Below are positions 5,853 through 60,700 of a DNA stretch of 64,000 bases, piece after piece. Origin of the DNA: Scenedesmus sp. PABB004 (lineage: Eukaryota); the NCBI GenBank assembly GCA_014905635.1, contig JABVCE010000031.1, forward strand, positions 248,001 to 312,000, read 5' to 3'. Under the pieces are notes generated by a model. The model did not search any database, was not told where the DNA came from, and saw only the letters and a program-made list of their open reading frames with translations. Within the stretch, counting starts at the first letter, position 1; each line of letters starts with the position of its first letter. The translations under genes and the position numbers were made by a program.

Positions 5853-8165
5853 CTAGCTCCAGCGTTGGTGCCACGGCGGCTGCTGCTGCTGCTGCTGCGC
5901 GTCCTGCGCCGCCACCAGCTGCTCCACGCTCAGCAGGCAGGCCGCGCTGCCAGCCAGCGACGCGCCGCCGTCGGGCGCCACCGACAGCTGCAGCGAGCGC
6001 CGCGTGTCGCGCGCCTGCGCCTCCTGCAGCGACGCACGCCGGCCGGCCTCGCCGCCGCCGGCGCTGTCGGGCTGCGCGGGCGGGCCAGCTGCGGGCGGCG
6101 CGAGCCCGTCCACCACCGGCGCGCCGGCGGCGCCGTGCATGCGCTGGATGTTGGCGATGTCACGCTGCACCGCCACGCAAAACGTGTCAAAGGCAATGAC
6201 CTGCGCACGCGCCGCGCACGGGCAGGCGGGCGTCGGCGGCGGCGGACGTGTGGGCGGGCGCGCCCGCGCCCGCGCCCGCGCCGGGGCCGGGCGCTCTGCG
6301 CGCGAGCCAGCGGCAGCGCGAGGCGAGCTGAGCCGCCGCGCTGCCGGGGTTCCCCAGGTCGGGCGGCGCACGTGGAAGGGCTCCTCCAGGAACGCCCCGA
6401 TGTTTTCCACGCCCAGCAGCAGGAACGCAATCGCGACCGCGAGCGCGGGCGACGCCCAGCCCGCCATCGGCCACAGCAGCAGCGGCAGCAGCGCGAGGTA
6501 CGCGGTGAGGAAGCGGGAGGTGTGCCTGCGCGCACGTGCGCAGGCGGCGGGCCCGCCGCGCCGTGAGGCGCGCTCGCCGCAGGGCGGCGCGCGGCGGCGC
6601 GGCCGGCGCCGCCGCGGCGCGCGCGAGCGGCTCGCCGGGCCGGCAGCGGCCGGCAGGGGCATTCGGCGCGGCGCGCGCCTGGTGTAGCAGAAAGGAATGG
6701 CCGTGTTAAAGATGCGGCCGCAGGCGCCGAACTCAAAGGTATAAAGCCGCACGTTGTCGTCAAGCGCCATGCGGACCATTGGGTCAACGCGCGCCTCCGC
6801 GACGATGCTCGACAGCGCCTGCGTGCAGGGGCCGGCGCGCGGCGCGGGCGCGGTTCGCGCGCGGGGCGGGGCGGGCCAGGCGCGGCGCGGCAGGGCCGGG
6901 CGCGGCGGCGGGGAGGGTGCAGCGTGGCCAGCGCGGCGTGAGGCGCGTCGCCCGCGCGCGCGCGCGCGCGCCCCGGACGCGCCTGCCCGAGCGCGAGCTG
7001 CTTGTGCGGCGCGGCGAGCAGCCAGTCGAGCTCGCCCGGCAGCAGCAGGCCTGCCAGCTCGGCGGCCAGGTCGGCGTCGGCGCGCACGAGCGCCTTGGTC
7101 ACCCACATCGCGGCCGCCGTCCAGCGGCACAGCGCGGCCACCAGGTGCGCCTGGTCGGCCGGAAAGTAGGCCACACCCTACGCGGCCGGCGGCGGCGCAT
7201 GCGGCAGCGCGTGGGCGGCGGCGGCGCGCGGCCGGCGGCGCACACGGCGGCGGCGCACGCTGGGGCGCGGCGGCGTGTGGGCGGCGCCGGCCGCGGGGGG
7301 GTGTGCGCCCCGCGCCCCGCGCCCCGCGCCCCGCGCCTGGCGCGCCAGGTTGTGCGCGAGCGAGACCAGCTGCCCCACGTCCTTGCGCGCCTCCCACCAG
7401 CGCGCGTAGCTGCTGTTGGTCTGCAGGGCGCGGCGCGGCGCGGCGCGGTGCGGCGCGGCGGTGTGCCGCGGCACGAGCGGCGCCCGCGCGCCGCCGACCA
7501 GCAGCCCCCCGGAGGCGCGGGCCGGCCGACGGCCGCCGACGCCGCGCCGCTGTGCTTGCGCTGCTGTGTCCCCGCGCGCCTTGAAGACCAGCAGGAGCGT
7601 GAGCGCAAACGTCACCGCGCCAAAGATCGCCTGCACGGCCTCGAGCCGCGCCATCGGCCAGTGCAGCAGCTGCGCCGCGCGGCGGCACGTTCAGCGGCGG
7701 CGGCGGCGGCGTGGGCGCCCGCCTGCCGCGCCGCGCCGGCGACGGCGCTGCCAGCAGTGTGTGCGCACCGGCACGAGTGTTGTATTGTACACACCAACAG
7801 CCACGCCCAGCAGCGCCACGCAGAGCAGCACGGACCAGTAGCCCAGCATGACGGACGCGCTGCGCGGCGCGGCGCGAGCAGCGTGAGCCGCCGCGCGCGC
7901 TGTGCAGCGTGAGCCGCCGGCGCCAGCGCCGCGCACTCACAGCTTGCCCGGCTGGGGTCGGTGGCGCCGCGCCGCGGTGCGGTGCCGCACCCACGCGGCC
8001 TGCGGGCGCCGCGGGCGCCGCGCGCGCGTTGGGGGCGGCGGCGAGCACCCGGCTGGCTGGCGCACGCGCGGCGGCGCGCACCTCGTCCATGACTCGGTCG
8101 GCGAACAGGCTCTCATGCTTGCTCGCCAGCGCCTCCCAGATGGCGCTGCGGTCACTGCCGTTCAT
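5853..8165 (-). CDS. Bestrophin-like (UPF0187/YneE, VCCN/BST-type) anion channel
   Basis: Nine exons: 8165-8082, 7999-7941, 7859-7769, 7669-7580, 7420-7337, 7177-6983, 6818-6679, 6525-6372, 6200-5853. The spliced product has the family motifs LLLVFK|TNSSYARWWEAR, IPFCYTR|HTSRFL and GVENIGAFLEEPF. Four of 8 introns have GC donors. Confidence 0.9.
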   Translation of the reverse strand: MNGSDRSAIWEALASKHESLFADRVMDEVRAAARAPASRVLAAAPNARAAPAAPAGRVGAAPHRGAAPPTPAGQAVSARRWRRRLTLHSARGGSRCSRRAAQRVRHAGLLVRAALRGAAGRGCWCVQYNTRAGAHTLLAAPSPARRGRRAPTPPPPPLNVPPRGAAAALADGAARGRAGDLWRGDVCAHAPAGLQGARGHSSASTAARRRRPSAGPRLRGAAGRRRAGAARAAAHRRAAPRRAAPRPADQQQLRALVGGAQGRGAAGLARAQPGAPGAGRGARGAGRTPPRGRRRPHAAAPQRAPPPCAPPAARRRRPRAAACAAAGRVGCGLLSGRPGAPGGRAVPLDGGRDVGDQGARARRRRPGRRAGRPAAAGRARLAARRAAQAARARAGASGARARARGRRASRRAGHAAPSPPPRPALPRRAWPAPPRARTAPAPRAGPCTQALSSIVAEARVDPMVRMALDDNVRLYTFEFGACGRIFNTAIPFCYTRRAPRRMPLPAAAGPASRSRAPRRRRPRRRAPPCGERASRRGGPAACARARRHTSRFLTAYLALLPLLLWPMAGWASPALAVAIAFLLLGVENIGAFLEEPFHVRRPTWGTPAARRLSSPRAAAGSRAERPAPARARARARPPTRPPPPTPACPCAARAQVIAFDTFCVAVQRDIANIQRMHGAAGAPVVDGLAPPAAGPPAQPDSAGGGEAGRRASLQEAQARDTRRSLQLSVAPDGGASLAGSAACLLSVEQLVAAQDAQQQQQQPPWHQRWS

Positions 8166-10700: not shown

Positions 10701-11498
10701 ATGCAGCTCAGCAGGCGATGGGCCCTCGCTGGGGGCCGGGCGCGGGCGCCGCTGTGCCGCTGCTGCTGCTGCCGGCCGCCGCGGCGCCCAGGCGCACCGC
10801 ACCGCCGCGCCGCACGCTCAGGTGATGGGCGAATCCTGCAGGCGCGCTCCAGCGGCAGCAGCGCGCTCGCCGCCGCCGCAGCGCCAGCTGCAGCGCCGCC
10901 GGCGCCGGGCGCGCTGCTGCAGCCTGGCGACGTGCTGACCGGCGGCAGCGGCGGCGGCGGCGGCGCAGCCAGCTACCGGCTGGAGACGCTGCTCCACAGC
11001 GGGCCGCGCTCGAGCGTGTGGCGGGCGCGCCCGGGCGAGGGCGGCGGCGCGGCCGCGGTCAAGGCGCGCGCGCTCGCTGGCGACGGACGGGCGGCAGCGC
11101 GGGGGGTGGTGGCCCGGCCGCTGTGTGCTCACAGCCGCCCGTTGCCTGCCGGCAGGTCCTCGAGACACCGAGCCCGGAGCGCCGCGCCGCGTCGCTGCAG
11201 GAGCTGGAGCTCACGCGGCAGCTCGCGACCGCCGCGCCGGGCGGCGGGTGCGGGCACCTGGTGCAGCTCTTGGACGGCGTGCTGATACGGCAGCGCTGCC
11301 TGCAGGCGCTGCGCCGCGCGCGCGCGGGTGCCACGGGCGCTGCGGCGGCCGGCGCGGACGCGGGCGGCGCGCCGCCCGGCGCTGCGGCCGAGGACGAGTT
11401 GGCTGCCGTCGCGCTGGTGCTGGCGCCGCTGCACCAGAGCCTGGGCTGGGTGCTGCACCGCGCGCGCAGCAGGTGCGGCTGCTGCCCGCCCGCCCGCA

Positions 11499-11529
<31 letters not shown>

Positions 11530-13191
11530 CCCCGCCCTCGCGCGCGCCGAGCGCGCCGCCGCGGCGGCGGCCGCGACCGCCGCACAGGACGGGCCGCGCG
11601 GGGCTGCCGCCGCCGGCGGTGCGGCGCCTCGCGCACCAGCTGCTGAGCGCGCTCGCGGAGCTGCACGAGCGCCAGGGGCTGCTGCACCGAGACGTCAAGC
11701 CGAGCAACCTGCTGCTGCAGCACCCCTTCATCGTTCACAAGCACAAGGTGCGCGCGGGGCTCACGCCACGCCGCAGCAGCCGCCGCACTGCGCACGCACA
11801 CGCGGCAGCGCGCGCGCCGCCGTGCCGCCGTGCCGCGGCCGAGCGCTGGCGCCCGCCCGGCGCCGCGCGCCGCAGCGCGTGCGGCGCGGCCTGAGCGCTG
11901 AGGAGCTCGCCGCCGCGCGCTGGAGCCTGGTGGACCTCGGCAGCGCCGCGCGCCTGCTACCGCCGCCGGGGCCGGCGCCGGCGGCCGGCGGCGCGGCCGC
12001 CGGCAGCGCACGGCACGGCCTGCCGGGCGCGCTGGGCTGGCTGACGGGCGGCGCGCGCGGCGGCGGCGCGGCCGGCGCCGGCGCCGGCAGCGCGCGGCAC
12101 GGCTGGCGCGTGGCGGAGGGCCCGCCGCCCTACGAGACGCCGGCCTACTCGCCGCCAGAGGTGCGTGCGGCGCCCGCTCGCCGCGGCGGCTGCGGGGCGC
12201 CGGGTGGGCCCCGCCGCCGGCCCACCCGGCCGGCCTCAACCCCGCCGCGCGCGCAGGCGGCGCTGCACCTCGCGAGCGGGCCGGGGCACGACGTGTGGTC
12301 GGCGGCCTGCGTCATCTTTGAGGCCGCCACCGGGCGCGTGCTCTTCCCGGTGGAGGCGGCGGCCGCGGCGCGGTGCGCGGGCGCGCGCCAGCTGCTGCGC
12401 CGCGGGGCCGCGCGCGGCGCGCCAGGCGGGGGTCGGCCGCGGGCGCACGCCGTGAGCGCGGCCGCGACGTGCGCCGCAGGGGCGTGCGCCTGCCGCAGCG
12501 CGGCGGCGCTGGTGGTGGCGGCGGCAGCGACGACGGCAGCAGCGACGGCGGCGAGTGTGAGTTTGACCAGGCCCACCTCGCCCTGGTCAAGGCCGTGTGC
12601 GGCCCGCCGCCGCCGCAGGTGTGTGTGCCCGGGCACCGCCGCGCCTCGCCGGGTGCTCCGCGCTGCGCCCCGCGCCGTGCCCCACGCCGCGCGCGCCGCG
12701 CCGCGCCGCAGCTGCTCGCGCGCAGCCCCGTCGCGGAGCAGCTGTTTGCCGACGCCCGCGCGGGGCGGCTGTGGGTCGAGGAGGACGCGCGCGGGGCGGG
12801 CGGCGCCGCGGGCGGCCCGCCGGCGTGGTGGGCGTTTTGGGCGCGCGAGCGCGGCGGCGCCGGCGCCGGCAGCGCGCCGGCGCGGCCGCTCGCGCACCAG
12901 CTGCTCGCGGAGCGCTCAATGTCGCCGCCGCAGGTGCGCGGGGGGCTCGCCGGCGCCGCGGCGCCGCCGGCGGCCGCCGCCCGACGCCTCGCCTGCCGAC
13001 CACCGCAGGCGCTGGAGCTGGCGGCGCTGCTCGGGCCGATGCTGGCGTGGGACCCCGACGCCCGGCCGCCCGCGGCGGCGCTGCTGGCGCACCCCTACTT
13101 TGCGCCGCTGCGCGCCGAGGGTGTCGGGGAGGGCGCACCGGGCGGCGAGGGCGCGGCGAGCGAGCGGGCCGAGGGCCCTGAACCACGATGA
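10701..13191 (+). CDS. Ser/Thr protein kinase, CMGC group, SRPK-like
   Basis: Spliced motifs: YRLETLLHSGPRSSVW, AAVK (GC donor at 11064), HRDVKPSNLL, LVDLGSA, ETPAYSPPE, HDVWSAACVIFEAATGRVLF, DQAHLALVKAVCGPPP and LGPMLAWDPDARPPAAALLAHPYF. Stop at 13189-13191. The start codon is uncertain. Confidence 0.85.
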
Positions 13192-13481
13192 CGTCGCTGC
13201 GGCCCCGCCCCCGCCGGCGCACGCAACGCTCCCAGCCGCCCACCTGGAACAGCCCACGCCCAGCCCCAGCATCCTCGCTTCCTCCGCCGCGCGGCCGCCG
13301 ACAGGCGCGGTCGCGGCCACGCTTCAGCGCGCCGCCGCGCCACCCGCGCGCCAGATCCGGCCTTCCGGGATCGCGACGCGCCCCTGAGCGCGCGCGCGCG
13401 CCCCGGGAGCGCGGCCGCGGGAGCCGCGCATCAGCGCGATGCGCGACCCGCCGCCCCGCCGCCGCCGCCGCAGGCAACAAG

Positions 13482-14100
13482 ATGGACAGTGTCAAGGCGG
13501 CGATGGACAAGGTCGCCGAGGCCGCGACGCAGGCGCGTGACGGGCGCGCGCCGCGCCCGCAAAAAGGTCGACGTCACGCTCTCCGCGCGCCGCGGCGACA
13601 TCGGCACGCACGGCGCGCCGCGGCCGCCGCCGCGCACACCCGCCGCGGCCCGCCCGCTCACGCGCCGCCCGCCGCCCGCCGCCCGCCCGCGCAGGCCAAG
13701 GACTCGGCCGCGGCCACGATCAACGAGGCCGCCAACCGCGCGAGCGAGACGATGCAGAGCGCCAAGGACAGCGCCGGGCAGGCCGCGACCGAGGCGCAGC
13801 ACCGCGCGGGCGAGGCCGTCGACAGCGCCAAGGCCACGGTCAGCGAGAACGCCCAGGCCCCGCAGCACCATGGCGCGAGCGCGGCCGACACGGCCAAGGC
13901 CAACCTGCAGGCGCGCGCGCGCACGCGTGGGCGGGCCAGCGCCGCGCCTCGCGCGCACGTGCGTGCCGCCTCGCGCCCCGCCTCACGCGCCCGCCCGCCC
14001 GCCCGCCGCTCTGCAGTCCGCCGGCGACACGGCCGCCCAGGCCGGCCACGACGCCTCGGGGCGCGCGCAGGAGGCGGCCGACTCTGCCCGCCCCTCCTGA
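13482..14100 (+). CDS. LEA-like hydrophilin (116 aa), copy 1
   Basis: Exons 13482-13532, 13695-13910 and 14017-14100 give MDSVKAAMDKVAEAATQ|AKDSAAATINEAANRASETMQSAKDSAGQAATEAQ...|SAGDTAAQ...ARPS*. Ala/Gln/Asp/Lys repeats resemble group 3 LEA proteins. Both introns are CAG|GCGCG...CAG. Confidence 0.75.
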
Positions 14101-14440
14101 GCGCGCGGCCGCCAGGCGGCTCGCGGCGCCGCAGGCCACCGTCTGCTGAGGACGGCTGCAGCGCGCGCGTGAGCGGATTGGGTTGAGGGCGCGCCGCCGT
14201 GCGCGCGTGTGTGTTGTTGATGCGCCTGGTAACTCGGGCGCCGCCAGGCACGCGTGCGCGCGGGCGCGCCCCGCCCCGGAACGGCCGGCCGGCGGGGTGG
14301 GGTGCAGCGCGCGCTCAACCGCGGGCGACGGCGGCGGGCACGTGCGCGGCGGGCGCGCGCGCGGATCGCCACATCGCCCCGGCCCGGCCCGCGCGCCAGC
14401 CCCCTCGCGGCGGCACCCGCTCCGCCAGCTGCGCGCGCCC

Positions 14441-15240
14441 ATGGCGGCGGCAGCAGCGGCGGCAGCGGCCGCCGCCCTGGACGCGGCGGCCATGTCGGTC
14501 GCTGTGTCGCTGCGCTTTGCATGCGGACGCACCATGGAGGTTCCGCTTGGCACGCTCGCGGCCAGCGACGTGCTGGCGGGCGCAGTGGCGGCGGCGGCAG
14601 CGTCGGCATCCGCTGCTGCTCCGCAGCCGCCGCCGCCGGGGCGCGCCCTGGCCCTCCCGATGCCGGTCGACGACACGCTGGAGGACTGGGAGCTGCTGGT
14701 GGGCTGGCTGGAGCACGGCGGCGCGCCGCCGGTGGCGGGCGCGCTGGAGCTCGGCAACATGCGGCGCGTGCTGCGCCTCGCGGACAAGTGGGACGTCGCC
14801 GCCGTCATCGACGCGGGCACCACCTGGCTGCTGCGGCACGCGAGCTTCACGCAGTCGCCGGTCGCCGAGGACGACCCCGCCTCGGTCTGGTCCTGGCTCG
14901 CGTTTGCCAGCCGCCTGAGCCACCCGGCGCTGCTGCAGGTGCGCGCGGCGCAGTGCCGGGCGGCGCCCGCCCGCCGCCGCGCGGCGCGCCGCGTGACGCC
15001 GCCGGCCCTGCCGCCCGCGCGCAGGCGCTGCAGGCGCGCGTGATCGAACAGCGCCTCGTCCCGCCGTCGCCCGCCGACGTGGCCGCCTGGCGCCCCGGAG
15101 ACGTCGCCGAGCTGCTCGTCGCGTCGCTGCGCGCGCACGCGGCCGATCGATTCCGCTGCCTCGGCTGCGTCGCGCTGCGGCGCGACACGGAGGTGCGGCT
15201 CTGCGCGACGTGCGCGTTTGCGCCGCACGTGCGCGTGTGA
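14441..15240 (+). CDS. BTB/POZ-domain protein with C-terminal CxxC...CxxC, copy 1
   Basis: Exons 14441-14938 and 15025-15240. BTB-like motifs are LAASDVL, DDTLEDWELLVGWL and VLRLADKWDVAAVIDAGTTWL. The tail is CLGC-x11-CATC. Confidence 0.75.
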
Positions 15241-15378
15241 GCGCGGGCGCGCCGCACACCCTCTTCTGTCTGCCGTGTACCCTCGTCGCGTCTGCCGTGT
15301 ACTCTGTACTTCTTTTTGCCGCCGCCGCCGCCAGTGTGGCTGCGTCCGCTGCGCGGCCGGCCGCCCTGTACTTGACAG

Positions 15379-16020
15379 GGCGAGTGTGAGTTTGACCAGG
15401 CCCACCTCGCCCTGGTCAAGGCCGTGTGCGGCCCGCCGCCGCCGCAGGTGTGTGTGCCCGGGCACCGCCGCGCCTCGCCGGGTGCTCCGCGCTGCGCCCC
15501 GCGCCGTGCCCCACGCCGCGCGCGCCGCGCCGCGCCGCAGCTGCTCGCGCGCAGCCCCGTCGCGGAGAAGCTGTTTGCCGACGCCCGCGCGGGGCGGCTG
15601 TGGGTCGAGGAGGACGCGCGCGGGGCGGGCGGCGCCGCGGGCGGCCCGCCGGCGTGGTGGGCGTTTTGGGCGCGCGAGCGCGGCGGCGCCGGCGCCGGCA
15701 GCGCGCCGGCGCGGCCGCTCGCGCACCAGCTGCTCGCGGAGCGCTCAATGTCGCCGCCGCAGGTGCGCGGGGGGCTCGCCGGCGCCGCGGCGCCGCCGGC
15801 GGCCGCCGCCCGACGCCTCGCCTGCCGACCACCGCAGGCGCTGGAGCTGGCGGCGCTGCTCGGGCCGATGCTGGCGTGGGACCCCGACGCCCGGCCGCCC
15901 GCGGCGGCGCTGCTGGCGCACCCCTACTTTGCGCCGCTGCGCGCCGAGGGTGTCGGGGAGGGCGCACCGGGCGGCGAGGGCGCGGCGAGCGAGCGGGCCG
16001 AGGGCCCTGAACCACGATGA
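15379..16020 (+). pseudogene. 5'-truncated duplicate of the kinase C-terminal exons, copy 2
   Basis: Starts mid-exon at GECEFDQAHL and lacks all upstream kinase motifs, including HRD and DLG. Confidence 0.85.
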
Positions 16021-16310
16021 CGTCGCTGCGGCCCCGCCCCCGCCGGCGCACGCAACGCTCCCAGCCGCCCACCTGGAACAGCCCACGCCCAGCCCCAGCA
16101 TCCTCGCTTCCTCCGCCGCGCGGCCGCCGACAGGCGCGGTCGCGGCCACGCTTCAGCGCGCCGCCGCGCCACCCGCGCGCCAGATCCGGCCTTCCGGGAT
16201 CGCGACGCGCCCCTGAGCGCGCGCGCGCGCCCCGGGAGCGCGGCCGCGGGAGCCGCGCATCAGCGCGATGCGCGACCCGCCGCCCCGCCGCCGCCGCCGC
16301 AGGCAACAAG

Positions 16311-27120: not shown

Positions 27121-28173
27121 TCACCGCGCCGAGCCCGGTTCGCACGCCAGCTGCGCCGCGGCCCCCGCCCCCGCTGGCTGCGCGTCCAGCCGCCGCAGCT
27201 CGGCCGTCTCCAGCCCCCACTCGCGGTGCCGCGTCAGCGGCGCGCCGTGGAACGTCGCCTGCGGCGCAGCGCGCGCCGCGCGGACGCAGCGCGCCCTCAC
27301 TCCCCACCGCCGGTCGGGCGCCCCGGCCCGCGCGTGCCGGCGCGCGCACCTGCAGGACGCTGAGCGTGTCGCCGTGGCTGACCAGCACGATCTGGCGGCC
27401 GCTGTGCCGCGCTTCGAGCTCCTGCGGGCGCGCGCGGCGCGTGAGGGCGCGGCGCGCGCGAGCAGCGCCGCCCCCCCCCTCCGCGCGCGCGCCGGCGCGC
27501 CTCGAACAGCTGCACGCAGCGCGCCGACACGTCGGCCACGCTCTCGCCGTCATCGCCGCCGGGCGGCCTGCTGCGCGGGTCGGCTGCGTCGCCCGCCCAC
27601 GCGGGCGAGTAGTTGGCGTGCGTCGTGCGCTCGAGCGCGGCGCCGAAGAAGCGCTCGCGCAGCAGCGGCTCCTCCGTGACCGCCGCGCCAGGCTCGAGCC
27701 CCGCCGCGGCGCACGCGAGCGCCGCGGTCTCGAGCGTGCGCGAGAACGGCGACGCGACGAACGCCACCGCGCCGAGCGGCACGCCCGCCGCGCCGAGCTC
27801 GCGCGCGAGCGCGCGCCCCGCGGCGGCCGCCTGCTCGCGGCCGGCCTCGGCGAGGCCGAACTCGGGCAGCACGCCGTTGGCCAGCGAGCTCACGATGATT
27901 GACTGCGGCGCGGCGGCGGGGCGGGGCGCGGTGGTACGCGGTGACGCCAGCAGCGGAAGCCGCGGTGCTGCTGACGCCGCCGCTGCCGGGGGGTGCGCCA
28001 GGTCTGCGCGGTCTTCTCACCTGCTCGTTGGCCTTGCTGCGGCCGTGGCGCAGCACCCTGCGCGCAGCGGCGGCGTGCGGCAGCGCTCGGCGCCGCTGCT
28101 GCGCGCCGCGGCGGCTGCGCGGCTGTGCTGCTCCCCCAGCACACCAGTAGGTGTTTCGCAGCGGGTGCTGCAT
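27121..28173 (-). CDS. Histidine phosphatase / phosphoglycerate mutase family protein
   Basis: Exons 28173-28145, 28057-28021, 27902-27501, 27421-27350 and 27258-27121. Motifs are YWVLRHGRSKANE, SPFSRTLETA, LRERFFG, GESVADV and VLVSHGDTL. One GC donor at 27500. Confidence 0.9.
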
Positions 28174-28389: not shown

Positions 28390-31280
28390 TCACGCCGGGC
28401 CCTCGCCGTCGCCCGCCGCCGCCGCGTCTGCGCTCGCGGCCGCCGCCGTGCGCTCGCTCCAGTCGATGCCCCGCGCGGCAGCTATGGCCTTCAGCATCTG
28501 CGGCGGGCGTGACGTGCGGGCGCCGGTGAGCGCCTGCCTCGGCGGCGGCAAGTGACAGGTGCGCGCGGCCGTCGCTGGCCTTCGCTGGCCCCGCGGCCAG
28601 CGCGGCGCCGCGTGCCTTGACGTCGGCGCTGCCGTCGGCGACCGCGGCGTCCGCGGCGGCGGCAAAGCCCTCGCCCGGCGCGGCGCCGAAGAGCTGCGCC
28701 GTGACGAGCGCCGGCGGCGGCGGCACCGCGAGCGCTGAGAGCACGTTGCTGAGGTACTCGGCGTCCGCCGCGAGCTGCGCGCCGCCGGCGGGCGAGAGCG
28801 CCGCCACGGCGCGCAGGCGCTCCGCGTACGCGAGCCCCGCGCCGCGCACGACCTGCGGGCGCGGCGCGCGCACGCGCGGCGGCGACGCTCGGCGGCGGCG
28901 CGCACGGGCCCCGCGCCCGCGCGCGGCGCGGGCCCCCCGCGCTGCCCCCGAGGCGCCGCCGCGCCTTGTCCAGCCACTCGGCCGCGAGCTCGTCGCCCTC
29001 CGCCTCCTCCAGCGCCGCCGCGCCCGCGCCGTCGCGGGCGCCGCCCGCCGCGGACTCGTCCGGCATCAGCACCTCCAGCTGCTGCGGCAGGGCCATCAGG
29101 TACTCGCCTGCGCGTGGTTGGTTGTGTGTGAGGTTGTGCGTGAGTGTGTGCGTGGCTGGGCGGGTGCGTGGCGGCGGGGAGGGCGGCGCGGCAGGCGGGC
29201 GGGCGGGCTGCGCGCGCGCGCCGCCGCGCCGCGCGGGCCGTGGCCGCGGGGCTCACCCACGGCCGTGACCGCGGGCAGGGGGTAAGGGCTGAACGTCGGC
29301 ACCACCGCGCCGACGCCCGGCACGATGCCGCCCGACCCCGGCGCGGCCGTCCAGTCGGGCAGGTCTGGCAGCGGCGCGAGCGCGGCGGCCACGGGCGCGA
29401 GCAGCGCGCCGTACACGGCGTCGCTGATGGCGCCGCACAGCGCGGTGCCTGGGGCGCGGGCGGGCGGGCGGGCGGGCGGGCGGGCGGGCGGGCGGGCGGT
29501 CGCGGGAGGGCGGCAGCCGGGCGGCGGCGGCGGCCGCGGCGGCCGCGCACGAGGCACGCGGGGGCCACTGCGCGGCACGCACCGGCAGCGTTGGAGGCCG
29601 GCAGCGACATGAAGCGAGAGCTCGCCGCCGCGCCGCGCAGCTTGGCCAGCGGCTGCAGCTTGCCAGGGAACGCTGCGAGCCGCAGCGGCAGCAGCTCCGC
29701 GGCGGCCGCGGCCGCCGCCGCCGGCACGCCCGCGACGCCGTGGCCGTGGCCGCCCGCCGCCGCCGGCGCGCCGGCGCCGCCGCCCGCGAGGCCCAGCGGC
29801 GGCAGCCCGCCCGCCGCGAGCTGCTGCAGGCGCGGTATGGCGGTCGCGAGCGTGCTGCGCAGGTGCGCCTCGAGCGCGCCGAGCCGGGCGCTCACGTGGC
29901 GCGACAGCACGACGAGCTGCACCATCACGCTCACGTCCGCCGCCGGCGACCCCGCCGCGGCGAGGCGGCTGTACCTGCGGCGACACCCGCGCGGGGTGCT
30001 CAGGCGGGCCGCGGCGCCGGGCGCAGGCGCGCCTGCCGCCGCCGCGCCCGCCGCTGCGCGCGCCGCCGCCGCGCGCCGCCGCACCTCGCGCTGACGATGC
30101 CGACCGCGGCCTGCAGGCGCTGCAGGAAGCCGGCGACGGCGCGGTCGAGCTGGACCAGCAGCGACGGCAGCTCGGTGCCGCCCGTGACGGCCATGCAGCG
30201 CTCCAGCACGCCGCCGAGCACGGCAAACGCCGACGACGCCGCGGCGGCGAGCTTCTGGGCGGTGTCGCTCTCGAGCTCGTCGGCGTCGCCGCCGGCGCCG
30301 CTGGGCGCACCGGGCGGGCCGCCGGGGCGGCTCGTGCGCACGGGCAGCGCCGCCGAGAGCTCCGCAGACATGGTCGCCTCCTCGAGCGCGCCGAAGCGAG
30401 ACACCTGCTGCTCCACCGGCTCCAGCAGCAGCTTCAGCAGCCGCAGCTCCGCGGCGCCGTCGGCGGGCTGCCCGCCCAGCGGCGCGGCCGACGCGAGCAG
30501 CTCGCGCAGGCGGCGCGCGCCGACGAGCGCGTCGCTGAGCAGCCCTGCCAGGATGTGGCTGCTGTGCACGCCCGCGAGCTTCTCTCGCAGGGGCTTGTTC
30601 AGCTGCGGGGGCGGGCGCGCGCGGCGGCGTGAGCGCCGCGGCGGCGCGCGGACGGCGGCGGCCGGCGGCGGCCCGCCCCCGGCCGGTCGCGCCGCGCGCC
30701 TTTTCCAGCGCCGCGCTCGTCGCCGCGACGAGCAGCTGCTGCCGCTGCTCCGGCAGGCAGCCCGCCAGCCACGCGGCGTCGGCCTCCAGCAGGCCAAACA
30801 GGCTGTTGTAGAGCAGCAGCAGCCAGCCGCCGCCGAGGCCGCCGGCGTGGCCGCCGGCGTGGTGGTGCGCGCCCGCCGCCGCGGGCGCGCCGCCGCCGCT
30901 CGCGAGCAGCGCCGCGGCCTCGTCCCAGACGCCCGCCACGAGCGGCGCGCGGCTGGCGACAAACGCGGCCTCCAGGCTCGAGTACCGCCCGACCGCGAGC
31001 AGCAGCTGCGCGAGCGACGTGACCTCCGCGCCCGCGTTGGCCTGCGTGCGGGCGGGCGCGCGGTGGGGTGGGCGCGCCGCCCGGGGCCGCGCGCGCGCGC
31101 GCCGGCGACGCCGCAGCGCGGCGGCCGGCGGGCGGCGCGCGGCGGGCGGCCGCACCGCGAGCGCGTCGCCAAGGCGGCCCTCCACGCGGCGCTGCAGGCG
31201 GTCCTCGAGCGCTGCGAGGCGGCCGCGGCCCTCCTTGAACTCAGGGACGTCGCCCACGAGCGCCAGGCTGCGCGCGGCGC

Positions 31281-31318
<38 letters not shown>

Positions 31319-31894
31319 TCGGCGGCGTGGCGGGCGCCGCGGCCGCGCGCAGTGCGCAGCGGCCGCGCCGCGCCGCGCCGCGCCTGCGGGCCATGCTGGC
31401 AAGCATGTCTGCCACGCGCGGGAGGTCGCCGGCGGCGAACACCTCCTCAACGCGGCGGAAGGCGCCGCTGAGCTCCGCGGCCTCGCGCAGCGTCGCGCAG
31501 CCGGCCTCCATGTTGCTGCGCGCCGTGTGCAGCGCCGCGAGCGGCGCCGCCGCGGCGGCCGCCGCCTCGGCGTCCGCCGCCACGGTCGTGAGCAGGTCCT
31601 GCGCCGTCGCCTGCGCGCGGCGGGGGCCGGCGCGGCGCGGCGCGGGGTGCGGGCGCCGCCCCGCACGGCCGGCGCGCAGGCGCAGGCGGCGCCGCGCTGC
31701 TGCGCCTCGGCCGCGGCCGCGCGCGGCGCCGCACCTGCAGCGCGCGCACGTCGCCGCGCAGGCGCGACACCTCCTGCTGCGCAAACGGCACGCGCCGCAG
31801 CGCCGCGCCGCTGCACTCGCTCAGCGCCGACTCAATCTCCTCGGCGCCCAGCTGCGCGGCGCGGCGAGGCGGCGGCGGCCCGCGCGTGGGCGCC

Positions 31895-31953
<59 letters not shown>

Positions 31954-32097
31954 GGCGCGGCGCCGCGCCTGCAGCCGCATCTCCAGCTCTGCCAGGAAGC
32001 GCTCGATCGGCTCCTCCGCGCCGCGGCCCGCCACGGCGGCGTTGATCCAGGCCTTGGGGTCGAACCCCTCCTCCGCAAAGGCCGCCAGGTCGGCCAT
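28390..32097 (-). CDS. COG7: Conserved oligomeric Golgi complex subunit 7
   Basis: Eleven exons. The N-terminus is MADLAAFAEEGFDPKAWINAA...FLAELEMRLQ|LGAEEI...LRRVP. C-terminal motifs are PTFSPYPLPAVTAVGEYLMALPQQLE and QLAADAEYLSNVLSAL. Five of 10 donors are GC. Confidence 0.92.
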
Positions 32098-32558: not shown

Positions 32559-35501
32559 ATGCGCGCCCTGTCCGCGCCCCGCGGCCTGCGGCCGCGCATT
32601 GGGCCGCCCGGCGCGCCGTCACAGCGCCGCCGCGTGTCGGCGGTGCGCTCCGCCCAGCCGGCGGTGGAGGCGGAGGCGGCGTGGCGCTGGGCGGGGCGCG
32701 ACGAGTACTCGGACCTGGGCGACCGCGTCGACGCGCCGCCGCTGCGCCTGCCCGCCATCGCGGCGCGCAAGCGCATCGTGCTGGTGCGCCACGGCCAGAG
32801 CACGTGGAACGCGGAGGGCCGCATCCAGGGCAGCAGCAACTTCAGCTGCCTCACCGCCAAGGGCGCCGCGCAGGCGGAGACGACGCGCGACATGGTGCGC
32901 CCGGCGCCTGGCTGGCCGCCCACCAGTTCCGGCAGCGCCGCGACTGCGGCGCCGCGGCGGCGAGCGGCGTCGATCGATCGCTGCCGGCGCTGCGCTGGCG
33001 CGCCGCCACCGAGCTGGCCGCGACCTGCCGAGCTGGCCGCCGCCCGCCCCCGCGCCCGCCGCCGCAGCTCAAGGACGACAGCTTCGACGCGCTGTTCGTG
33101 AGCCCGCTCACGCGCGCGGCCGAGACGGCGGCGATCGTCACGCGCGGCCGCGGGCAGCTGCGCCGCGTGGAGCTGCCGGCGCTGCGTGAAATCGACCTCT
33201 ATTCATTCCAGGCGCGCCCAGCAACACCGCGCACGCCGCACGCGCCGCGCCGCTCGGCCCGCCGCGCGGCCGGCGCAGGCGCCCGCGCCGGCGCGCCGCG
33301 CCCTGCGTCGGGCGGCAGCACACCGCGCGTGGCGCGCGCGAGCGCACAGGCGCGGCGTGAGCGGGCGCCGCCGCGCCGGCGCAGGGGCTGCTCAAGGCCG
33401 AGGGCAAGGCGCGCTACGGGGACGCGTTTGCGACGTGGCAGCGCGAGGCGGACGCGTTTGAGATCGACGACCACGCGCCCGTGCGCGAGCTCTGGCACAG
33501 GCGCGCCCGCGCAGCAGCAGCGGGCGCCCCGCAGCGCGCCGCGGCCGCGCCGCCGACGCGCCCGCGCCGCGCAGGGCGAGCCTCGCGTGGCAGGACATCC
33601 TGTCGGGCGACGGCGACGAGCGCTGCGCGCTCGTGGTCGCCCACAACGCGGTCAACCAGGCGCTCATCGCCTCGGCGCTCGGCCTGCCGCCGCGATACTT
33701 CAGGCGGCTGCTGCAGGCGCGCCGCGGCAGCGCGGCGCGGCAGCAGCGCGGCGCAAACAGCGGCGCGGCGCGGCAGCGGGCGGCGCTCGTCTGCCCCGCT
33801 AACACCCCCCGCACACGCTCGTACGCACCCGCCTGCAGAGCAACGCCGCCACGAGCGTGCTGGACTTCCAGCCGGGGCCGACGGAGAGCAGCCCGCCGCG
33901 CGTGACGCTCGACCGGCTCAACCAGGTGCGGCGCCCACGCCATGCGCACAGGTAGCGGGCTGTGGGTGCTTGCCCCGCCCAGGCTGGCCCTGCGGGCGCC
34001 AGCCCCCTGCTGCGGCGCGAGCGGGCGGGAGCGACCGCACGGCCCTGCCGCCATCATGCCGCCGCTGCCCGCCGGCCGCGCCGCGGCGCAGAGCCCCGGC
34101 CGGCCGTACGCCGCCGACGCGGGCGGGCGGCCGCCGTGCGGGCGGCTCGTGCTCGTGCGGCACGCGGCGACGGACGCCGACAGCAAGGGCCTGCTGCTGG
34201 GCAGCCGGGACGAGCCGCTGAGCGCGCTGGGCAACGTGCAGGCGGGCAAGGTCGCAGAGTTTCTGCTGGACATGAAGGCGAGCGGGCGCCCCACGCGCGT
34301 TCAAACGGGCGACAGCAGCGCCGCGCGACAGCTGGGCGCGCGCGCGGCCGCACGCGCGCGCGGCGCCGCCGCGGCGCCCGGCGGCGACGGCGCGCCCCCG
34401 CGCGCCCGCGCGCCCGCAGGTGCACACGGTGCTGACCAGCCCCGCGCGGCGCTGCCTCAGCACGGCGCAGCTGGTCGCGCAGCTGCAGGTTGAGGCGAGC
34501 CGCGCGGGCGCCGACGTCGCGGCCGGCAGCGCGGCGTCCAAGCCGCCGCGCGTGCTGGTGCTGCCGGAGCTGCGAAACCTCGACGTCGGCGTGTGGGAGG
34601 GCCAGCCCACGCGCATGGTGCGCGCACCGGCCGGTCGCCGGGTTGGGGCGGGCGCCGGGTCGGGCGCGCCGACACCGCCGCCGCCGCGCGCGCGCTGCTG
34701 CCACGCAGGTCGCCGACCGCGGGGGGCTACCCGCGGCGGCGGCGGCCGCCGCCGCCGGCGCGTCGGGGCCGGCGCTGCCGCCCAGCGATGCTGCGTATTC
34801 TCCCGGCCTTGAGGACCTGGGCGAGTTCTGGTTCCGCACGGGTGCGCCCCGCTGCAGACGCGCGGCGCTCGCGACGTGGCTCGCGCCGGGCGCGCCGCCG
34901 CCCCGCACGCGCGACCCCGCGCGCGCCGCGCCCGCGCACGCGCCCGCCCGCGCCGGCGTGCACAGAGGCGGCATGGAACAAGCTGGTGGACGCGGTGGAC
35001 CTGCACGGCGGCAGCAACGTCGTCGTCGTCTGCCACGCCGCGACCGCCGCCGCGCTCGTGAGCCACTGCCTCGGCCTCGGCCCGGAGGGCCTGCCCCTGC
35101 TCAGGTGCGCCGCACGCGCGCGCACACACGCGGGGCCTCGCGCGCGCGGGCGCTCTGCGCTCTGCGCTCCGCCGAGCGCGCGCCGAGCGCACGCCTGCCT
35201 TTTCGCCTGGCCCGCAGGTTTGACGCCGCCGGCGTGTCGATAATCGACTTCCCGGACGGCGGCCGCGGCGGGCACGGCGTGCTGCGCACGCACAACTACA
35301 CGGCGCACCTCGGGCGGTGCGCGCGCGCGCGCGCACGCGGCCGCACCCGCGCAGCCGCGCCCGCCCGCGGCGGCGCGGCCCGCGCGCGCCGCGCGTCGTG
35401 CGCTGACCGGGCGCGCCCGCCGCCGCGTGCGCAGGTGGGCCGTGCCCATCACGCGGGACGACCTCGACAACCAGGTCTGCGGCATCGACGGCTGCTTCTG
35501 A
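32559..35501 (+). CDS. CA1P: 2-carboxy-D-arabinitol-1-phosphatase-like protein (two histidine-phosphatase domains, likely plastid)
   Basis: A transit-peptide-like N-terminus is followed by KRIVLVRHGQSTWNAEGRIQGSSNFSCLT, LREIDLYSFQGLLK, HAPVRELW and VVAHNAVNQALI. A second, degenerate domain has LVLVRHAAT...VVVCH. It ends VCGIDGCF*. Eleven exons, 4 GC donors. Confidence 0.88.
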
Positions 35502-35930: not shown

Positions 35931-37299
35931 ATGACGACCGCGCACAGGCCCACATGGGCCCCCGCGCGCGGCGGGGAGGAGCAGGGCGGCATGCGCATCT
36001 TTGCGCCCTCCAAGCAGGTCTCCGCCAAGAACCAGGCCTCGCACACCAAGCTCAAGTTCAGGCACGTCCCCCGCCGCGTCGCTGGGGCGCGTCGCCCGGC
36101 CGCAGGGGGGGCTGGGCGGGCGCGGGGGGCGCCTGCCGAGCCCCGGCCGCTGCTGCCGCCCCCTGCGCGCAGGCAGGAGGGCCAGAACGCGCCGCACGAG
36201 CTCAAGCACCAGGACCTCAAGGTGGGGCGCCGCTCCCGGGCGGGCGGCTGCTGCCGCGCCGCCGGCGCCCCGGGCGCGGCGCCCGCCCGCCCGCCGGCAG
36301 CAGCAGCAGCAGCGCCGCCGCCCACGCCGCCGCCGCCGCCGCCCGGCCGCTGCGCGCAGGCCAAGCTCGAGGAGAAGGAGCGCAAGCACTTCCTGAAAGC
36401 CAAGGGCATCACCTTTGAGGGTGCGCGCTGGCGGCGCGGGCGCGGGCGCGGGCGTTGTCGTTGCGCACGCGGCGGCGCGGGCTGAGAGCACCGCGCCGCC
36501 GCTGTCGGGCGCGCGCAGAGGAGCGAAAAGCCGACCTCGCGCTGCTGGAGGCGGCGCCGCCGGACGGCGGCGGCGGCGGCACGCGGGCGCTCGTGCCAAA
36601 TGCAAAGGACGCCGACGACGTGGACGCAGACCTCAGCAGCGACGACAGCAGCGACGACGTGCGCGCCGCCGCACCAGCGGCACGCCGCACGCATGCGCCA
36701 GGGCTCCGCGGCCGCGCGTGCGCGGGCCGCGTCGCGTCGCCGCGCCCCGACGCGCCGCGCCCCGGCCCTGCTGCCGGCCCGTGCGTCGCGCGCGCAGGAC
36801 GGCGACTCTGACGACGACGAGGCGGAGCTCAAGGCGGAGCTGGAGCGCATCCGCGCGGAGCGCGCGGCCGAGGCGGAGCGGCGCGCCGCGGCGGAGGAGG
36901 CGAAGCGGGCCGAGGCGGTGCGCGCCGAGGTGCTGGGCGGCAACCCGCTCATGCAGGGCGGGGGCGGCGGCGAGGTGGACTTTGGGCTCAAGCGCAGGTG
37001 CGTGCGGGCGTGCGGGCGTGGGCGTGGGTGGGTGGGTGTGTGGGGTGTGTAGAGGGTGCGCGGCTCGTGCAGGCGGCGGAGGCGCAGTGGCCGCGCGCCA
37101 CGCGCCGCCGTGCGGCGCCCTCCCGCGCCCGCCCACGCGCGCCCACACCCGCCCGCACCCACGCGCGGCTGCCAGGTGGGACGAGGACGTGGTGTTCAAG
37201 AACCAGACGCGCGGCGAGGCCAAGGTCGGGCGGCGCTTCATCAACGACACCGTGCGCTCCGACTTCCACCGCAAGTTCCTCGACCGCTACGTGCGCTGA
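35931..37299 (+). CDS. CWC15: Spliceosome-associated protein CWC15/Cwf15
   Basis: [15 protein letters not shown]...HTKLKFR|QEGQ, then [22 protein letters not shown] and [17 protein letters not shown]...[21 protein letters not shown]. Six exons; the first donor is GC (36062). Confidence 0.96.
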
Positions 37300-41350: not shown

Positions 41351-45329
<3,979 letters not shown>

Positions 45330-46218: not shown

Positions 46219-47576
46219 ATGGCGGACGGCGACGACCTGGCCTTCGACTTTGAGGAGCAGCTGGATGCCCGCCCCGTCGCCCTCCCAGCGCCAGGCGGCG
46301 GCGAGGTACGGCCCCGGCGAGCCCCCAATGCGCGCAGCGGCGCCGGGCGGCTCATCTCAAGAGGCGGCGCCGCCGACGCGGCGCGCACGCAGCGCACATG
46401 CGCCGCTGCTGCTGCCGCTGCCGCGCCGCCGCCCCATGCGCGCCGCGCCGCGCCGCTCCGCAGGGCGTCGTCGGCGGCCGGGCGCTGGTGGTCGTCGAGG
46501 AGGAGCTGCCGGCGGCGGCCAAGGAGAAGAACTACCGCCAGGCGCGCCCCATCAGCTGCCGCGCCCGCGCCCGCGCCCGCCGCCGCCGCTGCCTGCCGCG
46601 CCCGCGCCGCGCCGCCGACTCGCATGCCCCGCCCGCCCGCCCGCCCGCTGCAGACGGTGTGCGCGTTCTGGCTGCGCGGCATGTGCATGAAGGGCGACGC
46701 GTGCGGCTTCCTGCACAAGTTTGACCCCGCGCGCATGCCCGTGTGCCGCGTGTGGATGAAGAGCGGCGAGTGCAAGGAGCTGGAGTGCCCCTTCAAGCAC
46801 AGCCTGGACGACGTGAAGGAGTGCAACATGTACAAGCTCGGCTTCTGCATCTACGGGCCCAACTGCCGCTACAAGCACACAAAGCAGCCCGGTGCGCGGA
46901 CCGCGCGCGCGCCGCGCACCCGCCAGCGCCGCCAGCGCCGCCGGAGCGCGGCGGAGCGCGGGCGCGCGCCTGCTCAGCTGGGGGCTCTCACGCGCGAGCC
47001 CGGCTCACGCGGGCCGCCGCCGCCGCCGCCGCGCCCGCACCCGCGCAGGCCCGCCGCCCGACCCGGAGGGCGTGGAGGCGGCCAAGCCGCGCGAGCACCG
47101 CGACTGGCGCAAGATCATGGCCGAGTCGGCGCTCGACGGCGGCAGGAGCTACGAGGCGCAGCGCCTGGGCAAGCGCGGCAGGTGCGTGCCGCGCGCGCCG
47201 CGCGCCGCGCGCTGCGCAGCGGCGGCCGGCCCGCGCTCACCGCGCTCACCGCGCTCGCCGCGCCGCGCCGCGCCGCGCCGCCGCAGGGAGCAGCCGATGC
47301 TGGCGCTGCCGGCGGCGCAGGGGCGGCCCGGCCCGCACGGGCCGCCGCAGGCGCAGCGGCCGCAGCAGGCGCAGCGCGGCGTGCCCGGCCCGGGCGGGGG
47401 CTACGGCGGGGGCGGCATGGCGCAGATGCCGGCCGCCCTGGGCGGCATGCCCGGCGCGGCGGCGGCCAACATGATGCAGCAGCAGCAGATGGCCATGGGC
47501 GGCGCCTATGGCGGCGGTGGGGGCGGCGGCATGCCCGGCGGCAACGCGGGCATGATGCAGCAGGCCATGATGATGG

Positions 47577-57790: not shown

Positions 57791-60671
57791 TCAGACCGCC
57801 GCCGGCGACGCGGCGGCCGCGCTGCCGCTCTCGCTGCCGCTCTCGCTGGCCTCGAAGAGCGGCGCCGTCGCGCCGCCGCCCAGCGGCTCGTCGGCATCCA
57901 GCGACGCCGACGGCGTGGCACCGAGCGCCGCGAGCTGCGCCTTGAGCGCCGCGACCTCGGGCGAGCTGCCGCCGCTGCTGCGGCCGTTGGCGGCGCCAGC
58001 GCTGCCGCGGTCGCCGCCGCCGCCACCGCTGCTGCTGCTGCCGCTGGTGCTGCCGCTGCTGCCGCTGGTGCTGCCGCTGCTGCCGCTGGTGCTGCCGCTG
58101 CTGCTGCCGCTGCCGCTGGTGCCGCTGGTGCTGCCGCTGCCGCCGGCGTCAGCGGGCATGCGCAGGAGCATCTCGATCGCCGCCTGCGAGTACGCGCCCG
58201 ACGCGCCCTCCAGCGTCGCCAGGCGGTCCAGCACCGCGAGCAGCAGCGCCTCGAGCTTGGGCAGCTGCAGGCGCTCAAACGTCGGCCCCTGCGCGGCGGC
58301 GGCGGCAGCGCGTCGGCGCGCCGCGCGCGGCGGCCGGCCGCCGCGTGCGGGCGCCGCAGTCCCTCCCGCCGCGCGCCCCCCGCGCCCCTCCCGCGCCGCC
58401 CCGGGGCCCCGGGCACCTGCAGCGCGGCCGCGAGCTGGCCCAGGTCGACTGCGTTCATGCGCGGCAGCGCCGCCGCCGCGGCGTCGGCCCAGTGGTAGAG
58501 CCACGCGGGCGGCGGCTGCAGCCCGAGCTCCCCGAGCGACCAGACCATGGTCGCCAGGCCCTGCGCGCGGGGCGTGTGGTGTGTGTGGGGTGTGTGTGGG
58601 GGGGGGGGGGGGGGCGAGGCGCGGGCAGAGGGGCAAGCGCGGCGCCGCGGGCAGCGATCCAGCCCGCCGACGCAGCGCACGCGCCGCCGCAGGGCCGTGC
58701 GCCGCAGGTCACGCCCCGCGCACGCACCTGGGGGTTTGCGACGTGAAGCTTGTGGTAGCTGGCCTGCAGGAACTGCTCCCACCACGCCTTGCCCGGAACG
58801 ACGCGCAGCTTCGCGAGCGCCCACACCAGCTGCGCGAGCTCCTGGGGCTTGAACCCCGACAGCCGCGCCGCGCCGCCCGCCGCGAGGCCGCCCGCGTCCG
58901 CGGCGCCGCCGCCGCCGGCGCCGAGGCCGGCGCCGCCGCCGCCGCAGCCGTCGCCGCCCGCGCCGACGCCCTCCCAGAGCGCCACGAGCAGCATGGCGGG
59001 CGGGCGCTGGCCGAGCTTGGCGTACGCCCAGAGCAGGTTTGAGACCTCCTGGGGGTTGAAGTCGTGCACGAGCGCCTCGGCCTGCGCGCCAAAGAGCGCC
59101 ATCCAGGGCCGCCCCGGCGGCGCGCCGAGCGCCGCGAGCGCCCACAGGCTGTTGGCGAGGTCGCGCGCGTTGGCGTCCTGCGGCGCGGCGCGGCGGCGGC
59201 GCGCGCGGCGCGCGGCGCGCTCGGCGACGCGCCCGGCGCAGGGGCGCCGGCACTGGACGCCACGCGGCCCGCCGTCGGCGCGCCGAGCCCCCGCCCGGCC
59301 GCACCTGCATGCCATACTTGAGGCAGCCGAGCAGCGACTGCAGCACGCGGCCCTCCGGCGCCACGCCCAGCTTGCCGTGCGCCCACAGCACGTTTGACAC
59401 CTGCGCGGCGGCGGCGGCGCGGCGGGGCTCGCGGCCGGCCCGCGCAGGCGCCAGGCTCGGCCCGGCGGCCACGTGCGGCGCCGCCGCGGCGCGCGGCGCG
59501 CACCTGGCGCACGGTGAGCCGCGGCGCGACCGCGCCGAGCGCGCGCGAGTGCGCGGCGAGCCAGCCGTCGGGCGGGCGGTAGTCGAGCGCGGCGAGCGCA
59601 TAGAGCAGCACGGCGAGGTCGGACGGCGACGCGCCGCCGCGCAGCGCGGGCTGCACCGTGCGCAGCGCCGCGGCGGTGAAGCCGGCGCCAGGGCGGTGCC
59701 CGAGGCGCGCGAGGGACCAGAGGCAGATGCCGAGCGAGTGCGGCGAGTAGGCCGCAATGCCGCGCAGCATGCACGCCTCGGCGGCGTCCAGCCACGCGGC
59801 GCCGCTGGCGCCGCCGGCGCCGGCGCCACCGCGCGCCGCGCCGGGCGCGGCGGTGGCGGCGGCCGCCGCCGCGGCGAGCGCGCCGTCCTGGCGCTCCTCG
59901 ATGCGCGCGGCCGCCCAGAGCACCATGGCCATGCCCTGCGGGCCGAGCCAGTCCATGCGCCGCGCCGCCGCGGCGCGCCAGGCGGCGGTCCAGCCGTCGG
60001 GCGGGCGCAGGCGCAGCGACGCGACCGCCCAGCCCAGCTGCGCGAGCTCCACCGGCTTGAACCCGCCGATGCAGGCCGCGCTCGCCGAGAGCAGCTGCCC
60101 CGACAGGCGCGGCCCCGGGCGCACGCGCAGCGACGCGAGCGCCCAGGCCATGTTGGCGAGGCCCTGCGGGTCAAACGCGCTGAGCCCTAAGCCCTCCGCC
60201 GCCGCGAGCAGCGCGCCAATGAGCTCCCGCTCCTCGCCCAGCTCCAGCGTGGCGAGGCCGTGCAAGACGTTGCTGATCGCGCGCGGGTCCATGTCCGGCA
60301 CGGCGCCCGACACCAGCACCAGCACCTGCGGCGGCGGCGGCGGCGGCGGCGGCGGCAGCGGCCCGTCGGATCCCCGCGCGGGGCCAGCCGGCCGGCCGCG
60401 CGGCGGCAGAGCCCCGCCCGCCGCGGCCGCGCCTGCGTGACCACGCCCGACAGGCCCAGCAGCTCCTTGGGGCGCAGGCTGCGCCCCGCCACGAGCTTGA
60501 CGACGCGGCAGAGCAGCGCGTTGGCGTGTATGGCGTTGAACGCGCCTGCGGGGCACGGCACGCCGCGGCGTGGCGCGGGAGGGCGGCGCGGGAGGTCGGC
60601 CGCTGCGTTGCGGCGCGGCGCCGCCGCGCGCCGCTGCTGCCCGCTGCTGCTGCGCCTGCTGCCCCGCTCAT

Positions 60672-60700: not shown

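Follow-up and report, generated by a model that had tools for sequence, protein, structure and literature searches.

GC-AG introns after an exonic AG in a GC-rich stretch of the Scenedesmus sp. PABB004 genome

Genes and intron junctions of the window

We examined a 64-kb stretch of contig JABVCE010000031.1 (positions 248,001 to 312,000, hereafter the window) from the green alga Scenedesmus sp. PABB004, in which introns that open with GC instead of GT are unusually frequent. The G+C content is 76.7-83.7% in every 4-kb bin, and a hidden Markov model (HMM) of three-periodic composition delimits about 90 short coding segments on both strands. Pfam searches with single-exon references agree with the gene list of the original prediction, which had been made from the letters of the DNA. 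The genes supported in this way encode bestrophin, a protein kinase, histidine phosphatases, COG7, CWC15, a cytochrome P450 and glutamate dehydrogenase, and further a CPSF30-type zinc-finger protein, an ANF-receptor protein, a FAST/OPR-like protein and repeats of the helicase-associated domain. A query with a dehydrogenase exon retrieved a deposited protein (P0005) named 'hypothetical protein HT031_006212 [Scenedesmus sp. PABB004]'. The accessible table of PMC12571836 lists the genome of this organism with 39.8 Mb, 78.5% GC and 7,092 genes, and its relatives with 13,000-17,900 genes each. The window thus belongs to the nuclear genome of a chlorophycean alga with an extremely high GC content.

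The original prediction placed 21 GC donors in these genes. All 21 positions read AG/GC on the expected strand (a slash marks the boundary between exon and intron), and 18 of them continue as AG/GCGCG, in keeping with the description 'mostly AG/GCGCG'; the others read GCACG (28615 and 36062) or GCGAG (34278). GC dinucleotides are about 5-9 times commoner than GT in the genes verified below. A motif-free ab initio prediction merged genes and placed GC at 68 of 104 donors on the forward strand and at 47 of 87 on the reverse strand, which we attribute to the sheer frequency of GC dinucleotides, and ranking of junction candidates by codon score left GT and GC options inseparable. Given the abundance of GC and the unreliability of codon and ab initio ranking, the junctions were tested by protein homology with controls.

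Homology was assessed with our own protein-to-DNA spliced aligner (BLOSUM62, affine gaps), in which any GT or GC can open an intron and any AG can close it, and which uses no other splice information. Homolog sets were assembled from three single-exon searches, for a CA1P-like phosphatase, bestrophin and COG7. Some of the CA1P-like homologs lie on contigs too short for introns (P0134, for instance, has 535 residues and its contig 2,235 nt) and are probably transcript-derived. The glutamate dehydrogenase gene (41354..45329, reverse strand) served as a control: P0005 maps to it at 100% identity over 12 exons, and its 12 introns are all GT-AG. When GC was allowed, the non-identical homolog P0047 recovered 12 of 12 GT-AG introns and not a single GC donor, and neither GC nor any decoy donor (GG, CG, CC, GA or AT) was chosen at any of the 12 introns of this gene. 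Homolog alignment also located a 10-nt micro-exon (41953-41962, reverse strand) between two of the GT-AG introns, which accounts for two residues of P0005 that could not be placed by exact mapping.

The homology-verified set comprises 40 introns, 27 with GT and 13 with GC, in four genes: bestrophin (5865-8123), COG7 (28393-32097, reverse strand), the CA1P-like phosphatase (32598-35498, forward strand) and glutamate dehydrogenase (41354-45329). Homology-only spliced alignment chose all 13 of the GC donors that had been claimed in the first three genes. The 13 junctions align with homologs without gaps, with 13-19 of 19 flanking residues identical, and all 40 introns, including those with GC, end in AG. 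The share of GC donors is 4/8, 5/10 and 4/10 in the three genes and 0/12 in the dehydrogenase. Claimed GC donors were the reason for including three of the four genes, and the overall share of 33% is therefore biased upward.

All four GC-AG introns of the bestrophin gene lie on the reverse strand and were selected with five of five homologs. The first (7421..7579) reads aag/GCGCGCG ... CCCTGCAG, and the residues around it are identical to P0205 at 19 of 19 positions. The second (7178..7336) runs from cag/GCGCGGG to CGCGTAG, with 14 of 19 residues identical. Its TAG acceptor, in place of the usual CAG, is the single exception to the C at acceptor position -3, which is present in 39 of the 40 verified introns. 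The third (6819..6982, cag/GCGCGTC) adjoins a coding segment of the composition HMM that ends at 6983, and the fourth (6526..6678, phase 2, cag/GCGCGCG) has 17 of 19 residues identical.

The five GC-AG introns of COG7, also on the reverse strand, are 31852..31968 (cag/GCGCGGC; three of three homologs, 16 of 19 residues identical), 31268..31383 (phase 2, cag/GCGCGGC; two of three homologs, 18 of 19), 30603..30699 (aag/GCGCGCG; three of three, 15 of 19), 28853..28964 (aag/GCGCGGC; three of three, 18 of 19) and 28498..28615 (aag/GCACGCG; two of three, 14 of 19). All five claimed donors were recovered with each of two homologs, and three of the five with the remaining one. In the CA1P-like gene, on the forward strand, each of the four introns was selected with five of five homologs. 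Two of these, 33212..33384 and 33717..33838, both open with cag/GCGCGCC and have GT counterparts in other loci (see below). The intron at 33501..33574 (phase 2, cag/GCGCGCC) is flanked by residues identical to P0122 at 18 of 19 positions, and that at 34278..34419 (aag/GCGAGCG) has 17 of 19 identical.

When GC donors are forbidden, the score falls by 179-194 units for the CA1P-like gene, by 225-237 for COG7 and by 120-237 for bestrophin, and the GT-only models are forced to donors that do not resemble the verified GT consensus, such as cgc/GTTTGAG and ctc/GTCTGCC in the CA1P-like gene. Decoy dinucleotides make up for part of this loss at positions a few bases off the same boundaries, and GC gives the top score in all three genes; for the CA1P-like phosphatase the scores are 1789 (GT only), 1970 (GC), 1922 (CG), 1921 (CC) and 1892 (GG). 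The lengths of nine of the 13 verified GC introns are not divisible by three, so that their retention would break the homology downstream. GC calls in unconserved stretches (for example ggc/GCGCCGG and acc/GCCGCCA), which vary with the homolog and lack the AG, were not counted. The donor at 34842/34844, for which GT and GC candidates separated by two bases have nearly the same score, was counted as GT.

Eight further claimed sites lie in genes outside the three homolog sets, and each of them has an in-frame GT alternative. We graded the support as strong for the 13 homology-chosen sites, good for three of the eight, moderate for the kinase site and weak for the remaining four, where it is ab initio only. 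The three with good support were compared with Pfam and Protein Data Bank (PDB) relatives. In a histidine phosphatase gene (27422..27500, reverse strand, gag/GCGCGCC), position 131 of the His_Phos_1 profile is the last residue of the upstream exon and position 132 is the first residue of the next; the intron has 79 nt and would shift the frame if retained. The CWC15 intron (36062..36172, forward strand, phase 2, cag/GCACGTC) joins exons into a product that reads ...HTKLKFRQEGQ, to be compared with ...HTKLKFRQTGQ in PDB chain 8xi2_P. This intron is open in frame, and when the read-through product was searched, 8xi2_P aligned with it up to ...HTKLKFR, after which the chain continues with QTGQ. 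The nearest GT alternative, at 36056, would delete the F and the R. Searches of Pfam and PDB with the short second CWC15 exon gave no match. In the cytochrome P450 gene (39972..40124, forward strand, aag/GCGCGCG), the upstream exon is aligned through its last residue (...VVPK) both with Pfam p450, at position 359, and with PDB P450 chains. The intron contains an in-frame stop, and use of the GT at 39963 would remove VPK. A PDB comparison of the entire second P450 exon was swamped by a Gly-Ala repeat, and a shorter piece of the exon gave a weak P450 match (E=0.086).

The kinase intron (11064..11155, forward strand, aag/GCGCGCG) is predicted ab initio, and its best consensus-like GT alternative, at 11016, would drop 16 residues ending in ...AAAVK, a stretch that presumably holds the conserved lysine of kinase subdomain II. 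Neither flanking exon has a kinase match in Pfam or PDB. Two of the weakly supported introns belong to an LEA-like gene on the forward strand. The first (13533..13694, cag/GCGCGTG), predicted ab initio and found again in tandem copies at 16362 and 19190, has 162 nt, is open in frame and might instead be retained. The second (13911..14016, cag/GCGCGCG, repeated at 16740 and 19568) starts where the composition HMM ends its coding segment (13910), and the ab initio prediction agrees, but it faces a serious rival in the in-frame, consensus-like donor cac/GTGCGTG at 13959, which would leave an intron of 58 nt. At the CPSF30 site (46542..46653, forward strand, cag/GCGCGCC), the composition HMM marks 46460-46557 as coding in the right frame and ab initio prediction concurs; the GT-only model skips this 78-nt exon, and the downstream exon is a homolog of CPSF4. 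For the FAST/OPR-like gene (60326..60432, reverse strand, cag/GCGCGGC), the coding segment of the HMM ends at 60433, again with ab initio agreement, and a GT alternative at 60441 differs by three residues. The claim that all 21 sites are real junctions thus stands for at least 16-17 of them, and four are predicted ab initio.

As a consistency check only, a second ab initio pass was guided by a position weight matrix (PWM) trained on the 40 verified introns. It returned 133 introns, comprising 92 with GT, 30 with GC after AG and 11 with GC not after AG, and re-predicted all 21 claimed sites. The 11 calls lacking the AG look like artefacts that bridge gaps: they are 'introns' of 192-689 nt (one has 67 nt) that mostly span the gaps between genes. 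The total of 133 includes these 11 and counts a tandem unit of 2,829 bp three times. A rough deduction from this pass leaves about 21 GC donors among about 105 distinct introns, and the original estimate of about one in five therefore holds for the window. Such a share is far above the usual 1-2%; in the accessible text of PMC7072748, the GT-AG share of junctions in plants, animals and fungi is put at 97.9-98.7%, and a weak link between the GC content of genomes and that of splice sites is described (see also PMC6310983).

Donor consensus and the exonic AG

The two classes of verified donors are closely similar outside position +2. Among 27 GT donors, G occupies +3 in 27, C occupies +4 in 18 and G occupies +5 in 26; the corresponding numbers among 13 GC donors are 12, 12 and 13. 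The consensus is therefore GTGCG for one class and GCGCG for the other, and they differ at +2 only.

What sets the GC donors apart is the exon that precedes them. The original prediction held that they always follow an exonic AG, and in the verified set this is true of 13 of 13 GC donors, compared with 13 of 27 GT donors (Fisher p=0.0011). Expressed the other way, none of the 14 donors lacking the exonic AG is GC, and 13 of the 26 donors that have it are. GT donors also tolerate other exon ends, as had been proposed; gcg, cac, cga, ccg, tgg, atg, gct, caa and cgg were seen. On the sense strand of the four verified genes, AG precedes only 77 of 2,711 GC dinucleotides (2.8%). As the aligner is blind to the exonic AG, its presence at 13 of 13 GC donors provides independent support for these junctions. 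The heptamer AGGTGCG was not found inside exons or introns on the sense strand of the four genes. Exons thus seem to avoid the GT form of the heptamer and to tolerate the GC form.

The cores of the introns consist of C (0.46), G (0.39), A (0.08) and T (0.07), giving a C/(C+T) ratio of 0.87. GC introns are shorter than GT introns (median 122 versus 166 nt), richer in G+C and even poorer in T. The proportion of GC among AG-preceded donors (13/26) lies below 0.87, which suggests weak residual selection for T at +2.

Minor-class (U12-type) introns carry an extended donor box that is ATCC-like after the first two bases. This box is absent from 13 of 13 verified GC donors, which continue as GCGCG, GCACG or GCGAG, and we rejected a minor-class assignment. 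No match to U11, U12, U4atac or U6atac was found in the window, which is a small sample for such genes; a search with Rfam at the gathering score gave no match in the window, and hence no small nuclear RNA (snRNA).

Origin of the GC donors

The original prediction had called for comparison of orthologous intron positions in related algae, and metagenome contigs provided material of this kind. A scan with the CA1P-like alignment yielded 78 loci, mostly intron-less or bacterial, from which five (L039, L048, L049, L055 and L064) were chosen for alignment by high identity of the best segment and split matches. Clean junctions were obtained in two of the five, L039 and L064. In L064 (62-64% GC), cag/GTGAGCA stands exactly at the position of the window donor 33212 (...YSFQ^GLLK..., residue 161 of P0122). 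In L039 (70% GC), cag/GTGTGGC stands exactly at that of 33717 (...RRLLQ^SNAAT..., residue 248 of P0122). At two positions where the window has GC, loci of lower GC content therefore have GT. For the remaining two CA1P-like GC positions, 33501 and 34278, no clear matching intron was seen in the five aligned loci; 33501 (codon 200 of P0122) has no exact counterpart, and three loci have a GT intron five codons upstream.

A high share of GC donors has already been reported for other GC-rich algae, and the window is an added green-algal case. The ordinary major-class (U2-type) GC-AG introns of animals, plants and fungi, which make up about 1% there, share with those of the window the GC donor, the AG acceptor and an otherwise major-class consensus that is strengthened around the site; the share in the window is more than ten times higher. 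The usual consensus of such donors is GCAAG, compared with GCGCG in the window. For human GC 5′ splice sites, the accessible part of PMC3167603 gives a figure of about 1% and mentions compensatory signals. In the haptophyte Emiliania huxleyi, according to the available text of PMC4028052, 56% of 241 manually mapped junctions are GC-AG, with an overall ratio of about 60/40; RT-PCR and sequencing confirmed 13 junctions, including nine with GC, and the phenomenon is ascribed to a genome GC content of 65%. Emiliania thus resembles the window in its very high share of GC donors and in its fully canonical AG acceptors. It belongs to a different supergroup and reaches about 56-60% at 65% GC, whereas the window has about 20% at about 80% GC. 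In the pelagophytes Aureococcus anophagefferens (14-17%) and Pelagomonas calceolata (about 14%), the available text of bioRxiv 10.1101/2024.10.30.620910 gives predicted GC-AG rates similar to that of the window, 0.32% for a relative of lower GC content, and again an attribution to high genome GC. These algae are stramenopiles with 0.14-0.9 introns per gene, whereas the genes of the window, in a green alga, have 8-12 introns. Our literature search found no paper on GC-AG introns in Scenedesmus sp. PABB004 or its genus; two candidate papers concern, to judge from their titles, cultures of cyanobacteria.

We consider it probable (about 0.72) that the GC donors of the window belong to ordinary major-class GC-AG introns that have been made common by GC-biased change of T to C at +2 in a nuclear genome whose GC content is about 80%. 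The same GC-biased substitution pressure that leaves about 7% T in introns would turn T into C at +2. The resulting C would survive only where pairing with U1 is otherwise good, at sites with an exonic AG and a G at +5, and donors lacking the exonic AG would stay GT. The GC donors obey the classical rule of compensation, and nothing in the results requires an adapted spliceosome; the standard one would probably suffice.

Several observations weigh against this explanation. The sequence AGGC[GA]CG is insufficient to specify a donor, since it occurs at 20 sites in the four verified genes, of which 12 are donors and eight are not (five exonic and three intronic). A GC donor must accordingly need some definition beyond the heptamer. 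Among all 40 donors, +4 is C in 30 and G in four, which canonical pairing with U1 does not predict. Only two matching intron positions were found in other loci, which come from presumed relatives of the organism of the window. The four sites predicted ab initio include the LEA-like donor 13911 with its good GT rival, and splicing as such is deduced throughout from protein homology. Finally, the rate describes a single 64-kb window, and claimed GC donors played a part in the choice of the genes behind the figure of 13/40.

The excess of C at +4 speaks for the proposal made in the original prediction, namely that the spliceosome of this lineage is adapted, for example through variant U1 or U6 or altered U1C, Luc7 or Prp8. 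A change in the 5′ end of U1, in the ACAGAGA box of U6 or in one of these proteins would make C well tolerated at +2 (and +4), and GC donors would then accumulate. As canonical U1 leaves the ratio of 30 to 4 unexplained, a modified U1 or U6 retains some standing. A GC share of 13/26 among AG-preceded donors would also be high if GC donors were as weak as they are in animals, and the presence of unused heptamers in exons is compatible with such a mechanism. Set against this, the exonic AG is still needed at 13 of 13 sites, which is the classical sign of a weakened site that is being compensated, T at +2 is still over-represented relative to the C/(C+T) ratio of intron cores, and the authors of the comparable algal cases, in the accessible parts of their reports, invoke composition only. 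We regard adaptation of the spliceosome as unlikely.

A more specific version, to which we give slightly less credence, is that reading of the 5′ splice site has shifted. The U1 base opposite +2 might pair with both U and C, or that opposite +4 with C, or a contact of U6 or Prp8 might have changed. C at +2 would then be nearly neutral after AG, and a further signal would mark true donors as distinct from the unused exonic heptamers.

It is comparably doubtful that the GC donors, although real, are deliberately weak sites that serve regulated splicing or intron retention and are not neutral by-products of composition. In Emiliania the high share of GC donors goes with frequent intron retention, according to the accessible text of PMC4028052. 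The GC introns of the window are also the shorter and more G+C-rich class (median 122 versus 166 nt), and they are clustered by gene (4/8, 5/10 and 4/10, compared with 0/12 elsewhere). Retention would shift the reading frame for most of them, however, and the clustering may merely reflect local composition or level of expression.

Least probable is that many of the junctions were mis-placed, the true donors being nearby GT sites or the introns being retained coding insertions, with a true GC rate near normal: the 5-9-fold excess of GC over GT, the readiness of the motif-free run to pick GC (68/104 and 47/87), the in-frame GT alternatives at all eight sites outside the homolog sets (with 13959 consensus-like) and the two open-frame introns among those eight could favour such errors, but GT-only models lose 120-237 units at the 13 verified sites and resort to off-consensus donors, the control dehydrogenase never picks GC, all 13 GC donors chosen by homology follow AG whereas the background rate is 2.8%, and the GT alternatives in the histidine phosphatase, CWC15 and P450 genes delete residues aligned with Pfam or PDB relatives.

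Consequences for annotation and minor features

The window adds an intron-rich green-algal case to the haptophyte and pelagophyte examples. The dependence on the exonic AG, with GC at 0 of 14 donors lacking it and at 13 of 26 donors having it, could be used to measure the selection that holds T at +2 under extreme GC content. There are also practical consequences, because gene finders that expect GT would break or drop genes in the PABB004 genome. In Emiliania, the available text of PMC4028052 describes GC donors as misleading GT-centred predictors and causing errors in gene models. Queries with exons of the CA1P-like gene (32598-35498, forward strand) and of COG7 (28393-32097, reverse strand) retrieved no identical deposited protein, and the all-GT dehydrogenase was found intact. 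Together with the low number of listed genes (7,092), this suggests that GC donors have cost the public annotation many genes. Judging from these three genes, the public annotation may lack or mis-model genes with GC donors.

Several repeats were noted in the window. The 2,829-bp unit mentioned above is present three times in tandem, over at least 12550-20356, with 100% identity in every 300-nt sample compared, and contains the 3′ exons of the kinase gene, the LEA-like gene and one further gene. It is either a very recent triplication or an artefact of assembly. Positions 1-2000 hold another tandem array, with a period of 222 or 446 bp (9 or 4.5 copies, 98% matches), which overlaps coding-like segments and whose translation is a repeat rich in alanine and glutamate. 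The P450 gene region includes a long CAG run with a poly-Q-like translation (38144-38233, forward strand), and in the product of the penultimate exon (40125-40598, forward strand) the PERW motif is separated from the haem-binding region by a long repeat of Gly-Ala dipeptides. At 61886-63895 on the forward strand, four exons each encode one helicase-associated domain (HA, PF03457).

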